Shown here in pieces: positions 2,441 to 7,878 of a DNA stretch of 7,878 bases; position 1 is the stretch's first letter; each line of letters starts with the position of its first letter. The stretch comes from a virus (lineage: Duplodnaviria; Heunggongvirae; Uroviricota; Caudoviricetes): the IMG/VR virus record IMGVR_UViG_2671180283_000022; one strand, 5' to 3'. The position numbers and the translations under genes are program-made. A model generated the notes under the pieces. That model was not told the origin of the DNA. It saw only the letters and a program-made list of their open reading frames with translations, and made no database searches.

Positions 2441-2645
2441 TCCCCACCTATACCCACTTTTACTACCCACTTTTCACAATTCCCCACCTCGTTAAAGGCG
2501 TGGGATTTGTAATTTTTATCATGCTGTTTCATAAGGATTTTTTTGCTCCCCACTTTTTGGGGTGTATACAGGTCGAAAAGTGGGGAAGCGTGTTTAAATT
2601 TTGTTAAATTCCCCATGCTCCCCACTTTTACTTCCCACTTTTTAC
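2441..2645. repeat. iteron cluster, putative replication origin
   Basis: At least 8 copies of core (t)CCCCAC(t)TTT: 2441-2449, 2452-2462, 2465-2475, 2481-2489, 2547-2558, 2619-2630, 2632-2645, one inverted at 2576-2586 (head-to-head with 2547-2558), and a partial copy at 2609-2615. AT-rich stretches at 2506-2545 and 2592-2610; directly 3' of the replication gene. Confidence 0.6.
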
Positions 2646-4051
2646 AGTGGCCCTACATCATCGCCGTCAACATAGATAACGCCGTCTTTTTCCAGCTTGC
2701 CCAGCCAGCGCCGGAAGTGCTTCATTTCGTATCCCATCTTCTTCATGTCATCACGCAACAGCGGGATCGTGCACTTGTCGCCGTTCTGTGTGCGTGAACG
2801 GATGCACCCCCATAGCGCGGTATGGTTTTCCGTCTTGTTGCCTGCCTCCTCGATGCGCTCCAGTTCAACGGGTGGGCGCGGCTCATCCACCACCACCAGC
2901 GACGTAATTAATTCGCCGTCAGCGTCGGTAAAAAGCTCCACAACCCGCAAATCATAGGCAGCCTCTTTGAGTTCCTCCGCGTCCTTCATTTTGGTGCATG
3001 AGATGACCAGCGCTTCGCTTCCTGCGTCCTCTCTGCGTATCCTGTATTCAGCGTCCAGCGATGCACGGAATGCACTGGAACCACGCGCGCCCTTTGTTTC
3101 ATCCTTGCCGGAATGGTGAACCACCAGCACCGTGGCCCCTGTGCGTCGTTTCAGTTCGTCACATCCACGGATAAACGCCCCCATGTCACGGGAGTCATTT
3201 TCGTCATTGCCGCCAAAGCAACGCGCCAGCGTGTCCAGAATAATCATTAGAACCGGTTTACCCGTTTCCCGCTCAACCTGGCTGGCAGCAATAACCAGTT
3301 CATCAACATCAAGCGGGACAGCCGGAAAGATGGGACGGTTTACAAGGTAAAGATTTTTCACCTGCTCCCCGTGCACAACCTCCCAGGCTTTTACACGACG
3401 CGGAACGCCAATACCGCCTTCACCAACCACATAGAGAACAGCGCCATGCGCCACCCTGCGGCCTCCCCACTGGCGGCCCGTGGAAACGTGACACGCCCAC
3501 GATCCGGCAAGGAATGATTTATAGGAACCGCTCGCCCCGTATATGCTGCAAAGCGACGATGCCGGAATAATCCCCTTTACCACGTAATCAAGCTGCGTGT
3601 CGTATCCGGTAGATCCAACGCTCATCGGTAGCGTGGTTTTTCGCTGGGGGATTTTTTTCATGACCAGGCTTTCCCCGCGTTCCCATGCCTCCCTAAGCCG
3701 TGGAAGCTGGTCGTTCCATTCCTCCAGCAATTCGAAATTTTCAGAAATTAGCCGCGCCTCCTGGACTCCGGCGATCGCCAGTTTCGTGGCGATGGTTAAC
3801 AGCTGCGGCTCTTCAATATTTCCGGCGCGTATCACCGTCGCCCTGTATCGCCCATCATCAACAATCTGGAGGTTATCCAGTTCGCTTAACTGATAACACC
3901 CCAGATAAACGGGGGGGACTGGATCGCCTGCTTTTTTGGCCTGTGCAATGATGTAGTGCTCTGCAAATGAGTGCGCATCATTCCCCGCGAAAATAATTGC
4001 TTCGGTGTATTTGTCTTTCGGTAATCGTTTTACGTTCGGTGCAAGTTTCAT
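2642..4051 (-). CDS. replication protein with RecA-like (AAA_25/RepA-type) P-loop ATPase domain and an N-terminal domain possibly primase-associated (469 aa)
   Basis: Walker A GASGSYKS, Walker B-like VLMIILDTL, and ...VLVVHHSGKDETKGARGSSAF... typical of RepA-like helicases; ATG 4051-4049 overlaps the upstream stop (ATGA); iterons lie immediately downstream. Confidence 0.8.
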   Translation of the reverse strand: MKLAPNVKRLPKDKYTEAIIFAGNDAHSFAEHYIIAQAKKAGDPVPPVYLGCYQLSELDNLQIVDDGRYRATVIRAGNIEEPQLLTIATKLAIAGVQEARLISENFELLEEWNDQLPRLREAWERGESLVMKKIPQRKTTLPMSVGSTGYDTQLDYVVKGIIPASSLCSIYGASGSYKSFLAGSWACHVSTGRQWGGRRVAHGAVLYVVGEGGIGVPRRVKAWEVVHGEQVKNLYLVNRPIFPAVPLDVDELVIAASQVERETGKPVLMIILDTLARCFGGNDENDSRDMGAFIRGCDELKRRTGATVLVVHHSGKDETKGARGSSAFRASLDAEYRIRREDAGSEALVISCTKMKDAEELKEAAYDLRVVELFTDADGELITSLVVVDEPRPPVELERIEEAGNKTENHTALWGCIRSRTQNGDKCTIPLLRDDMKKMGYEMKHFRRWLGKLEKDGVIYVDGDDVGPL

Positions 4052-4347
4052 TTTTTACCCCTGAATACGTTCAACATCTTTCTTATTTCCTGAATATTGG
4101 CGCGTGCTTTCTCCCTGCTGGTTGGCTTACTGCGGGGCGCTGCCTGTACCAGATAAAAATCACGGTCGAACTGATAAACAGGCATAACGCAATCATATTC
4201 GTAGCCTTCACGGCGGTAAGTTACGCGCCGTTCCTCCACGCCCTTAATCATTACCGTTCCGCCGTACTTATCGCGGTAAATATCCCCGCACATGAATTTA
4301 GTGCGAGTTTTGCCGCTGGCAGTTAAGCCAGGATATTTAAGTTTCAT
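4048..4347 (-). CDS. hypothetical protein (99 aa)
   Basis: ATG 4347-4345 with GGAGAA SD; stop TGA overlaps the ATG of the replication gene (ATGA at 4051-4048); no family recognised. Confidence 0.5.
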   Translation of the reverse strand: MKLKYPGLTASGKTRTKFMCGDIYRDKYGGTVMIKGVEERRVTYRREGYEYDCVMPVYQFDRDFYLVQAAPRSKPTSREKARANIQEIRKMLNVFRGKK

Positions 4348-4352
4348 TATTT

Positions 4353-4580
4353 TTATTCTCCGGTGTGGGGCGCTTTATTATTTTCGTGAATTGCCATCGC
4401 CTTATCCAGTTCATCAATTACAGGCGATAGTAATGTCTGAACGGCGGCAAATATTAATGATGCAGGTTCTCCACCATCTTCCGGCACGTCTATTAACTTA
4501 ATTAACAGCGCATTCATTTCGCGCGCTTTAGTTAATGCGTTTTCAGAGTGGCTTAATACTTCAAAAGGGACTTTATTCAT
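4353..4580 (-). CDS. hypothetical protein (75 aa from ATG 4580; track start is GTG 4583)
   Basis: ATG 4580-4578 overlaps the TGA of the upstream paralog (TGATG); AGGGGG about 10 nt upstream; no family recognised. Confidence 0.5.
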   Translation of the reverse strand: MNKVPFEVLSHSENALTKAREMNALLIKLIDVPEDGGEPASLIFAAVQTLLSPVIDELDKAMAIHENNKAPHTGE

Positions 4581-4744
4581 CACAAAACCCCCTGACGAAT
4601 ACGGGCGACAAAAATCAGATGTGCGTGCGGCAGCTGGGCGCGTGCTTCGCGCTCAGTGGCAGCGGTAACGGTGAATACATCAATGCAGCTGTGGTGGCAC
4701 TGCATAAAGCGCCAGACAAAGTAAGGGCGTGCGGATACAGCCAT
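4580..4744 (-). CDS. small protein, paralog 1 (54 aa), motif FVWRF...TEREAR...ARIRQG
   Basis: ATG 4744-4742 with AGGAG SD 8 nt upstream; translation MAVSARPYFVWRFMQCHHSCIDVFTVTAATEREARAQLPHAHLIFVARIRQGVL. About 50% identical to paralog 2, with synonymous differences at conserved residues. May belong to the Icd-like/Ash-like small proteins of P4-like satellites (unverified memory). Confidence 0.55.
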   Translation of the reverse strand: MAVSARPYFVWRFMQCHHSCIDVFTVTAATEREARAQLPHAHLIFVARIRQGVL

Positions 4745-5030
4745 GTGAAAGGCTCCTACAGTAATTTTAAGGAGTCTCGCTACTACGCTGCTAAACGGGG
4801 TGGCGAGACGTAACAGGGTTAGCAGACTGGCACTGTAGGAACCAGCGAGCGCAAAGGCTCCCCCGTTACGCCCCGCCATAATGCGGGTATGGGTAGGCTT
4901 ACGGACACAAAAAAACCGCATATCGGAATATAAGCGGCTGTCCGCTACAGTATTCAGGCTGCTAAACCCGGTCGCCATGTGGGCGACGGGGGAAGCATAC
5001 AGCCCCGTTATAATTTTTTGCAAGCGGTTT
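4745..5030 (-). other. spacer between the paralogs, open in paralog-1 frame; probable decayed third copy or N-terminal extension
   Basis: No stop in the paralog-1 frame over about 95 codons; contains paralog-like remnants (...MRFFCVRK..., ...FSSVVARLLKI...) and two copies of GCTGCTAAAC plus CTACAGTA leader-like words (4756-4810 and 4945-4992). Confidence 0.25.
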
Positions 5031-5228
5031 TTACGCATGATGTGACCCCTGACGAATACGGGCGGCGAATACAGCAACACAACCGGACGGGCAACGGCTA
5101 CGCGCTTCGCGTTCCGTCCAGGCGGTTACGTGGATGATTTGAGATTCTCCGGCACTCAGGGCCAGAAAACGCCACACAAAGGCCGTTTGTGTGTGTACAA
5201 GGTGTGGTATATGATTTACGGCAACCAT
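5031..5228 (-). CDS. small protein, paralog 2 (65 aa), same family as paralog 1
   Basis: ATG 5228-5226 with AGGAG SD 5 nt upstream; translation MVAVNHIPHLVHTQTAFVWRFLALSAGESQIIHVTAWTEREARSRCPSGCVAVFAARIRQGSHHA; first gene of the replication operon. Confidence 0.55.
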   Translation of the reverse strand: MVAVNHIPHLVHTQTAFVWRFLALSAGESQIIHVTAWTEREARSRCPSGCVAVFAARIRQGSHHA

Positions 5229-5257
5229 AACGGCTCCTAGTTTACGTTGTTGGTTAG

Positions 5258-5301
5258 AAGCCCTGCGAGTGGTAATGACACTTGCGGGGCTTTGCTTTTT
5301 T
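5258..5301 (+). terminator. plus-strand hairpin terminator in the divergent intergenic region
   Basis: 14-bp stem 5258-5271/5279-5292 with 7-nt loop; the two non-Watson-Crick positions are G-U wobbles on the plus RNA but C-A mismatches on the minus RNA; followed on plus by tgctttttt (5293-5301). Confidence 0.45.
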
Positions 5302-5318
5302 AAGTGCTCTTGTGTTAA

Positions 5319-5362
5319 GGTGACCACCTAACAATGGAAAGGCTAATTCAATAGGTGACCAC
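5319..5362. promoter_or_regulatory. direct repeats GGTGACCAC (5319-5327 and 5354-5362), candidate operator in the divergent promoter region
   Basis: Two exact 9-bp copies 35 bp apart, each followed by a yT...AACAA tail, immediately upstream of the Arc-like gene and facing the replication operon; exact hexamers not resolved. Confidence 0.3.
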
Positions 5363-5933: not shown

Positions 5934-6140
5934 TTAAGCAGCCGTTCCGCGTGCTTCCTGTTCGCGTTCTTTCTGCCAGGCCAACACATCATCCTCATAC
6001 CATCCGCGACGGCGTAAACCAACGCGAAAACCCTGCGGAAATTCTCCGGCGTTGATCATGCTTTGCAGCGTGCTGTCTGCCTTGATGTGGATAATTTTTT
6101 TTACTTCCTGGCGAAAGATAATTTTTCTGATTGCTTCCAT
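5934..6140 (-). CDS. alpA: AlpA-family transcriptional regulator / excisionase-like HTH protein (68 aa)
   Basis: ATG 6140-6138 with AAGGT SD; ...IKADSTLQSMINAGEFPQGFRVGLRRRGWYEDDVLAWQ... fits the AlpA HTH pattern (S-T-hydrophobic, G-x-F-P, G-W). Confidence 0.75.
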   Translation of the reverse strand: MEAIRKIIFRQEVKKIIHIKADSTLQSMINAGEFPQGFRVGLRRRGWYEDDVLAWQKEREQEARGTAA

Positions 6141-6636: not shown

Positions 6637-7878
6637 CTACACGGCTCGGATACCCCTTTTACCACTGGCGAGGGTTACGCCCGTCGCCGCAGCCTCGACA
6701 AATTCGCCCCACCAGCGCATCAGCACGATGCGTTTTTCTATGTAGTTGCTCCGGTTGTATGCCCGTCTAACTTCGTTGGTGTCGACGTGGGCAAGTGCCG
6801 CCTCTATTACGTCCGGCTCGAATCCTTCCTCGTTCGCTGCTGTGCTGAATATGGCGCGTAATCCATGAGACACCAGCACGCCAGCGAATCCCATACGCCG
6901 CAATGCTGCGTTAGCTGTCTGGCTGTTCATCGGCTGCTGTGGGTCTTTCAGACTTGGGAAAACGTAATTGCGGTGGTGGCTGATTGGTTTCATGGCCTCC
7001 AGCACCGCCATAGCCTGACCGGAAAGCGGGATAACGTGATCCCTGCGCATCTTCATGCGTCCGGCAGGTATCGTCCATTGCTTCGCGTCCAGGTTGATTT
7101 CATCCCACCGCGTTGATGACGCTTCGGCGGGACGGGTTACGGTCAGTAACTGCCATTCAATCAGTAATCTGGTCTGCCGTTCTGTTGCCGATACTGATAA
7201 AGCCTGCATAAGCTCCGGCAGCTGTTCGGGGCGGATTGTTGGCATATGTTTTTTTACAGGTGAGGGAAACGCCTTACGCACATTCATAGCCGGATTGGCA
7301 TCAATCAGCCCACTGTTGGCGGCGTAATCCATTACCTCATTAACGCGCTGTAAAACCCGCTTGAGTGTTTCCAGGTTGCCGCGCTCCTTGATGGGGGTAA
7401 GCACTTCAACGAACCTTCGGGCGGTGAGGGTATCTATTGGCGTGTTGCCGATGAACGGGAATACATATTTATCCAGCGAACGCCAGATGTCTTTAATCGT
7501 GTTGGGGGCCAGATTCTGGCTGATTTTCACCTGGTACCATGCCGCCGCCACATTTTCGAACGTGTTCCCTTGTCTTCGGGCCTCTGTCTCTCTTTTTTGC
7601 CTCTCGTGGTCCTGCGGGTCAGTTCCGGCACTGATTAACGTCCTGTACTCGCTACGGCGTTTTCTGGCATCAGCCAGGGAAACATCTTCAAGCGATCCAA
7701 AACTCAGCAATATTCTTTTTTTGTCCGATGGTCGGTAGTAGGAAAATCTCCAGAGTTTTGATCCAGACGGTTTGACCAGGAGAAAAAGCCCTCCGCCGTC
7801 CTGCAGGGTGTACTCCTTTTGCGCTGGTCTGGCTGCTTTGATCTGCACTGTGGTTAATGGGTGTGTTTTTCTCGCCAT
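6637..7878 (-). CDS. int: P4-type tyrosine integrase (413 aa, complete; ATG is the last triplet of the window)
   Basis: N-terminal arm-binding signature ...LTTVQIKAARPAQKEYTLQDGGGLFLLVKPSGSKLWRFSYY...; C-terminal catalytic region with ...HGLRA... and ...RAYNRSNY... (putative catalytic Tyr); stop TAG at 6639-6637. Confidence 0.9.
   Translation of the reverse strand: MARKTHPLTTVQIKAARPAQKEYTLQDGGGLFLLVKPSGSKLWRFSYYRPSDKKRILLSFGSLEDVSLADARKRRSEYRTLISAGTDPQDHERQKRETEARRQGNTFENVAAAWYQVKISQNLAPNTIKDIWRSLDKYVFPFIGNTPIDTLTARRFVEVLTPIKERGNLETLKRVLQRVNEVMDYAANSGLIDANPAMNVRKAFPSPVKKHMPTIRPEQLPELMQALSVSATERQTRLLIEWQLLTVTRPAEASSTRWDEINLDAKQWTIPAGRMKMRRDHVIPLSGQAMAVLEAMKPISHHRNYVFPSLKDPQQPMNSQTANAALRRMGFAGVLVSHGLRAIFSTAANEEGFEPDVIEAALAHVDTNEVRRAYNRSNYIEKRIVLMRWWGEFVEAAATGVTLASGKRGIRAV

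Follow-up and report, generated by a model that had tools for sequence, protein, structure and literature searches.

An iteron array directly after a RepA-family helicase gene as the probable replication origin of a PICI-type satellite

We analysed a 7,878-bp stretch of Caudoviricetes DNA (IMG/VR record IMGVR_UViG_2671180283_000022), referred to here in its whole length as the window. Every gene of the window is encoded on the minus strand, and those that bear on the analysis, together with two associated features, are the following.

6637-7878, minus: tyrosine integrase (Pfam)
5934-6140, minus: AlpA-type match (Pfam, weak, E 0.0035)
4048-4347, minus: DUF4222 protein (Pfam)
2642-4051, minus: rep, putative initiator-helicase of 469 aa (Pfam AAA_25, phrog_2850, AlphaFold2)
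2194-2625, minus: 143-aa open reading frame with a GTG start, running through the repeat array described below
2194-2430, minus: small gene of 78 aa (phrog_1231) with its ATG at 2430, beginning right after the last repeat and outside the putative origin
2158-2175, minus: terminator-like hairpin and T-run after the small gene
1087-1707, minus: small terminase (terS) homolog (Pfam), about 730 bp downstream of the array
1-924, minus: capsid-family protein (Pfam)

The window carries the backbone of an E. coli phage-inducible chromosomal island (PICI), here composed of int, an alpA-like gene, an Icd-like gene, DUF4222, rep, the small ORF, terS and a capsid gene. The properties by which PICIs are recognised, namely a length of ~9-15 kb, an integrase with its specific att site, an activator of the alpA type, a one-directional operon that includes rep, and a lack of lysis and tail genes, were all found, although the alpA hit is weak. 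Over rep, the nearest relatives in E. coli share 93% and 88% identity with the window. In the related loci L001 and L002 the island occupies ~9 kb between tRNA-Pro/yejM and yejO, and the window's relatives thus share with Gram-negative PICIs the use of yejM, which is listed as an attachment site of several E. coli PICIs (Fillol-Salom 2018 supplement, PMC6092414). We also considered whether the island could be a cf-PICI, and rejected this reading: the relatives stop right after the capsid gene, without portal, protease or large terminase, and we therefore treat the island as a PICI of the classical type that has terS and a homolog of a capsid gene.

Some further observations concern these genes. 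The C4 antisense RNA of Rfam (RF01695) matches 4796-4883 on the minus strand with 71.5 bits against a gathering threshold of 45, and it falls where ORFs 4580-5080 and 5031-5327 correspond to the relatives' "host cell division inhibitor Icd-like" genes, which suggests that the island holds a c4-icd module in the style of P1, P7 and P4. The longest terS ORF has 206 aa, compared with 162 aa called by PGAP in relatives (L001 4935-5423), and the Pfam match begins at aa 47; the true start of terS is probably internal. One locus from a 12.8-kb metagenome contig (L167, ERZ1673734 NODE-1866) encodes a Rep 100% identical to that of the window, and probably represents this very element or the contig it came from.

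Between the rep stop and the small gene lies a dense array of short repeats. Using the looser core [AG]TGGG, we found ten copies of a AAAAGTGGGGA-type repeat at 2440-2643. Exact CCCACTTTT occurs six times in the window (five copies on the plus strand and one on the minus), all of them inside 2453-2642 and none elsewhere; six copies in 190 bp compare with 0.12 expected, and 0 of 200 shuffles reached this number. The iterons are ~11 bp long with the core GTGGGG(A) and recur at a spacing of ~11-13 bp. The parts of the array are as follows.

2642-2631, 2629-2618, 2620-2609, 2557-2546, 2491-2480, 2474-2463, 2461-2450 and 2451-2440, minus: eight gene-strand core copies, of which 2620-2609 is degenerate and reads ATGGGG
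2576-2587 (clear) and 2496-2507 (degenerate), plus: two inverted core copies
2609-2643, minus: three direct copies that form the rep-proximal cluster, AAAAGTGGGAAG, AAAAGTGGGGAG and the degenerate GCATGGGGAA, whose position is kept across genera
2589-2606: short AT-rich spacer, 77.8% A+T
2546-2587: core dyad, consisting of the inverted iteron 2576-2587, the centre CGACCTGTATACACCCC and the direct iteron 2557-2546; the most conserved part of the array
2506-2546: central AT-rich spacer of 41 bp between the two repeat clusters, 75.6% A+T
2496-2507, plus: degenerate iteron in inverted orientation, GCGTGGGATT, on the distal border of the central AT-rich spacer
2440-2491, minus: rep-distal cluster of four direct copies, GAGGTGGGGAA, AAAAGTGGGTAG, AAAAGTGGGTAT and TAGGTGGGGAA, whose offsets are kept in relatives

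The array begins within rep itself: the stop codon TAA occupies 2644-2642 on the minus strand, and its final A's merge into the A-tract of the repeat ending at 2631, AAAAGTGGGAAG. The inverted iteron pair encloses CTGTATAC, with the arms of the inverted repeat at 2547-2566 and 2567-2586 around ggggtgtatacaggtcg. A second cluster of repeats with this iteron motif is absent from the 7.9-kb window. What a first-pass annotation, made from the letters alone, had described here is borne out: the repeats are real, lie where it placed them and far exceed chance; the head-to-head inverted pair is present with the arms just given; and the spacers it called AT-rich have ~76-78% A+T against 50.7% for the whole window. 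Its count of at least eight copies holds for the core, of which there are ten; the full CCCCACTTTT is carried by only three. The copy it described as the last, overlapping the rep stop, is indeed last on the plus strand and is the first in gene orientation.

We searched the same region for other signals that accompany origins or regulatory sites. DnaA boxes (TTWTNCACA, one mismatch allowed) showed no enrichment, with 15 in the window against 16 expected and one in the array, and the array contains no IHF consensus. A sigma-70 scan of 2050-2800 found no promoter, and an operator or promoter reading therefore has no support. The interval from rep to the small gene contains neither a terminator-like site nor one resembling a sigma-70 promoter, and transcription probably continues across the origin. 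Rfam has no match in the array region, the C4 RNA being the only one in the window. Single-strand folding of the array gave z = -3.05, but the hairpins simply mirror the inverted iterons and are no evidence for a structured RNA or a single-strand origin.

To place the array in a comparative context, we collected ~240 related loci, comprising four annotated E. coli loci, 80 loci from a set with one genome per species, 80 from viral contigs and 80 from metagenomes. In nearly all of them, across roughly 20 enterobacterial genera, a repeat array directly follows the rep stop. Iteron offsets from the stop (~+8/13, +52/57 for the inverted copy, +80/85, +140, +167 and +180/190 nt) are shared by Escherichia, Xenorhabdus, Pectobacterium, Serratia, Morganella, Pantoea, Kosakonia and others, and Xenorhabdus loci have a clear inverted copy at +135, about the offset of the degenerate 2496-2507 copy of the window. 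When 16 sequences were aligned across genera, the CCnCACTT, TATA and AAGTG columns were invariant or nearly so, the best-kept columns being those of the inverted copy, the central TATA and the next direct copy; the AT-rich spacer is kept by composition, not by sequence. Of 171 distinct origins, 155 contain an inverted pair no further than 150 nt from the stop, 138 of them with TATA between the arms; the arms are mostly spaced 20-22 nt apart, and the distance from the stop to the pair is 55-60 nt in most of these origins.

The surroundings of the array are far less constant. Only residues ~135-469 of Rep are common to all genera; the N-termini vary. Some Reps are zinc-ribbon/Toprim primase fusions of ~680-700 aa (the domain assignment comes from a single 680-aa homolog, P0120), while others have ~455 aa or ~350-380 aa. 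On the other side, the 1.5 kb 3' of the array differs between genera, and the small ORF of the window has no homolog within 1.5 kb of the array in any testable non-E. coli locus of the one-genome-per-species set. The comparison shows an array that travels with the helicase and C-terminal part of Rep, and not with its neighbours.

Rep itself matches AAA_25/RepA helicase (PF13481) in Pfam at aa 151-318 (E 3.7e-42) and phrog_2850 over its full length, and PGAP names the protein in annotated relatives "helicase RepA family protein". It can be divided into an N-terminal domain (aa 1-126), a RecA-fold core of the RepA type (~aa 140-345) and a predicted C-terminal winged helix (aa 400-469). The model that AlphaFold2 gave with 30 homologs was mediocre overall (mean pLDDT 68, pTM 0.45), with a confident N-terminal alpha/beta domain (aa 1-125) and a poorly modelled linker (315-396). 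Foldseek matched the RecA-like core best to RadA/Rad51 (E about 7e-3), and a 69-column match of the model to 1stz chain B was not significant (E 0.08). Sequence searches of the PDB with Rep gave no match, Pfam assigned no family to the isolated N-terminal 126 aa or C-terminal 72 aa, and neither a primase domain nor a Rep_3 match was recognised in this Rep by Pfam. Two stretches of the gene matter for what follows.

2645-2854, minus: region coding for the predicted C-terminal winged helix, aa 400-469 (AlphaFold2, pLDDT 79-92)
2722-2714, minus: codons of Lys444-His445-Phe446, read from the sequence

In the model, the C-terminal domain consists of helices 408-422, 429-438 and 446-455 followed by a beta hairpin at 459-468 (strands 459-462 and 465-468), and these three helices and hairpin are predicted to be a winged helix. 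The third helix begins with residue 446, and residue 445 directly precedes it. This is the helix that usually enters the major groove in proteins of the winged-helix type, and the modelled placement of the two residues would fit a direct read-out of bases, without amounting to proof of it.

We then asked which parts of Rep vary together with the iterons, scoring mutual information with iteron class over 340 aligned Rep columns. Column 445, in the motif Lys-His-Phe-Arg-Arg-Trp, ranked top of the 340 with 1.65 bits. Counting only loci with at least three readable iterons, the combinations of residues 445-446 and the bases that follow GTG are those listed here.

His-Phe: GGG(A) (GTGGGG), about 58 loci
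His-Leu: GGC (GTGGGC), 27 loci
Asn-Phe: AGG (GTGAGG), about 67 loci
Asn-Met: AGT (GTGAGT), 11 loci
Ser-Phe: CGGC (GTGCGG), 15 loci
Lys-Phe: GGGG (GTGGGGG), 28 loci

No locus among about 200 breaks this pairing. It persists where little else in the protein differs: against an identical 40-aa C-terminal background, His accompanies GTGGGG in 19 loci and Asn accompanies GTGAGG in six, and between L003 and L004 the sole difference in the last 65 aa is His445Asn, with every iteron switching, so that L004 has GTGAGG or GTGAAG where L003 has GTGGGG. The Asn-A pairing also recurs in Xenorhabdus Reps that are ~53% identical in this domain. The pairings agree with the usual side-chain preferences, by which His or Lys goes with guanine and Asn with adenine. 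The codons for 445-446 lie ~70 bp from the first iteron, and physical linkage therefore adds to the correlation; such linkage would nonetheless leave unaccounted for both the concerted change of all ten copies and the recurrence in distant lineages. It is on this concerted change and recurrence, and not on formal phylogenetic statistics, that the case for covariation is built. These patterns give indirect support to the view that the repeats behave as Rep binding sites.

A more specific reading, towards which we lean slightly, is that residue 445 (His/Lys, Asn or Ser) sets the base after GTG (G, A or C) and residue 446 (Phe, Leu or Met) the base two on (G, C or T). This would be a natural recognition code dividing the family into at least six orthogonal rep-ori groups, in which one-residue switches together with concerted iteron change would spare co-resident islands cross-initiation or incompatibility. 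We found neither an origin reprogrammable by one residue and one base nor a two-residue, two-base pattern of this kind in the literature searched. The code suggests how several related islands could share an E. coli cell without interfering with one another's replication, the ~240 natural rep-ori pairs make the origin specificity of enterobacterial satellites directly testable, and the specificity classes could supply small orthogonal replicons for engineering.

The closest known system is that of the Gram-negative PICIs, whose origin lies directly 3' of the initiator gene and has two iteron sets around an AT-rich region (Fillol-Salom 2018, ISME J, PMC6092414). In the tested example, EcCICFT073, a pri-rep-ori plasmid was kept only with both rep and ori intact (PMC6092414). 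The window shows the same arrangement, with a first iteron that overlaps the rep stop and two iteron sets (2546-2643 and 2440-2491) on either side of the AT-rich spacer. Gene order also agrees, since EcCICFT073 has int, an HTH regulator, an Icd-like gene, DUF4222, the replication gene, a 288-bp gap and a small ORF, and the 85-aa product of this last ORF is 73% identical to the 78-aa product of the window. What differs is the Rep core, which is RecA-fold PF13481 here and D5_N/DUF5906/Pox_D5 (the C-terminal region of P4-family primases) there, and the iterons, which are AAGTGGGGA here and CTGTCTACC/GGTAGAYA in the same gap there. With the same flanking genes, another core and other iterons, EcCICFT073 therefore shows that Rep core and iterons are swapped as one cassette. 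We found no experimental test of the particular origin described here in the literature searched, and the iterons drawn by Fillol-Salom 2018 (Fig. 2a) lay outside our comparison.

A second parallel is found in the SaPIs of Staphylococcus aureus, a Gram-positive host. SaPI Rep unites initiator and helicase, uses a C-terminal winged helix to bind 6-12 iterons directly after rep, and loads itself (Qiao 2022, PMC9371898); in the SaPI origin an AT-rich centre separates the iterons, some of which are oppositely oriented, and the SaPI Reps have been placed in AAA+/SF3 clades (PMC9371898). The window resembles this Rep-ori system (Ubeda et al.; Qiao et al. 2022) in combining initiator and helicase in one protein with a predicted C-terminal winged helix, in having short iterons after rep with an AT-rich centre, and in the absence of a separate loader. 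In the orientation of the iterons the two are similar rather than identical: here one clear inverted copy and one degenerate one occupy the inner edges, and the outer copies are all direct. Unlike SaPI Rep, the Rep of the window has a RecA fold and no sequence similarity to solved structures, and its hosts are Gram-negative.

Other replicons match less well. Phage satellite P4 shares the E. coli host and a multifunctional replication protein, alpha, that binds short repeats through its C-terminal domain (PMC6092414). P4 alpha combines a primase with an SF3 helicase, and part of its repeats are in ori and part at the distant crr site, while here there is one compact array and no primase domain. 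The IncQ plasmid RSF1010 likewise has a helicase core in the Pfam AAA_25/RepA family. Its oriV has iterons beside an AT-rich stretch and depends on the RepA helicase, the RepB' primase and the RepC initiator; the separate RepC binds iterons of 20-22 bp, and the helicase lacks a DNA-recognition domain. The helicase here, in contrast, carries its own predicted winged helix, the repeats are ~11-13 bp apart, and scanning the ORFs of the window with Pfam and PHROGs revealed no homolog of RepC or RepB' and no replication protein family besides the helicase, which sets the window apart from IncQ. Classical iteron plasmids have a two-winged-helix Rep without helicase activity, iterons of 17-22 bp and DnaA boxes, and they load the host DnaB. 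The features of this class (Rep_3/RepA-WH1-WH2, pi, TrfA) are lacking here, where we find a PF13481 helicase, ~11-13-bp repeat spacing and no DnaA-box enrichment.

Taking these lines of evidence together, we consider it highly probable that 2440-2643 is the Rep-bound replication origin of a PICI-type satellite. The first-pass annotation had read the locus as an iteron-type origin in the rep-ori layout of satellite islands, and this reading is supported by the RepA-family helicase upstream, the PICI backbone, the array following Rep in relatives, the residue covariation and the published precedent. As the layout of PICI origins, and with it the kind of element described here, has already been published, the novelty is low; the result would place the origin of one more PICI-type satellite, with a helicase core that is not orthologous to that of the tested EcCICFT073 example.

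A mechanism consistent with these observations can be outlined. Following excision of the island and induction of its leftward operon, Rep would act as initiator and helicase in one and recognise the iterons through its C-terminal winged helix, in which residue 445 probably contacts the base that follows GTG and residue 446 the one two positions beyond it. Several Rep molecules would occupy both clusters as well as the dyad, and the DNA would melt at the TATA centre and/or in the AT-rich spacer, the presumed unwinding region. The RecA-fold helicase rings may then load themselves without a separate loader, which is proposed by analogy to SaPI Reps only, because the helicase superfamily of this Rep differs from those of the EcCICFT073 and SaPI initiators. 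Priming and synthesis would fall to host or helper-phage enzymes, since this Rep has no recognisable primase domain.

Alternative roles for the array can be weighed against the same data. The 143-aa frame that the first-pass annotation reported running through the array, with its GTG start, raises the question of whether the region is coding, with the repeats forming a repetitive N-terminal peptide. Both the window and L001 keep this frame open, and the long form has entered databases as CTW01619.1, "putative prophage protein" (28 contigs), with forms of 140-145 aa occurring in ENA and Logan gene calls. In L002 and L003, however, an in-frame stop 3-6 nt ahead of the small gene's ATG shuts the frame; the 83-position phrog_1231 profile aligns only to the last 78 aa (E 8.8e-47, profile positions 5-78); the homologous 85-aa ORF of EcCICFT073 follows a wholly different array; all non-E. 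coli loci tested have the array without the small ORF; and two of the repeats have the reverse orientation. A conserved protein spanning 2431-2625 had been named at the outset as an observation that would speak against an origin, and the stops in L002 and L003, the length of phrog_1231 and the position of the EcCICFT073 homolog after another array indicate that this stretch does not encode one. The GTG-start version is an over-extension of the 78-aa gene, the comparison of relatives has already refuted the coding interpretation, and we regard it as scarcely credible. The expectation that automated annotation would miscall the origin as coding proved half right, given that PGAP/RefSeq leaves the ~200-bp gap uncalled in four E. 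coli relatives (the RefSeq form, WP_072170764.1, has 78 aa), yet the 143-aa form has been deposited, and this database entry is an over-extended call.

Two further possibilities accept the array as a protein-binding site and differ in the function assigned to it. Small terminases bind arrays of short repeats, and with a terS homolog ~730 bp downstream the array might be a packaging site, pac or cosB-like, for the product of 1087-1707. This seems very unlikely to us: the offset of the array from the rep stop is fixed while the downstream 1.5 kb differs between genera and the small ORF is missing, the repeats co-vary with Rep 445/446 and not with TerS, and EcCICFT073 was reported without terS (PMC6092414) yet has an iteron array in the same gap. 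Alternatively, the Rep sites could be mainly regulatory, with initiation elsewhere: they could control copy number, through handcuffing or titration, or serve as roadblock or attenuator for transcripts that run from rep into the packaging genes downstream. The array does sit inside a transcription unit, with no terminator- or promoter-like site separating rep from the small gene, and plasmid iterons are known to serve both initiation and control. Against this, the anatomy of iteron clusters, inverted pair and AT-rich spacer after rep is that of the tested EcCICFT073 and SaPI origins, the window offers no second cluster of the motif, and a control role is compatible with origin function. A purely regulatory role is thus less economical than the origin reading, and we judge it improbable.

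Two observations extend beyond the window's own array. The first concerns L004 2380-3043 (E. coli F9792, NZ_CP024273), where the unannotated gap after rep measures ~645 bp as opposed to ~200 bp and contains a second inverted pair of GTGAGG iterons around TATATA, ~280-330 nt past the rep stop; this pair may be a duplicated core origin. The other concerns Rep aa 1-126 (window 3674-4051, minus), which are 47% identical to the N-terminus of EcCICFT073 Pri-Rep even though the helicase cores of the two proteins are unrelated, and this shared N-terminal domain may be an island-specific adaptor.
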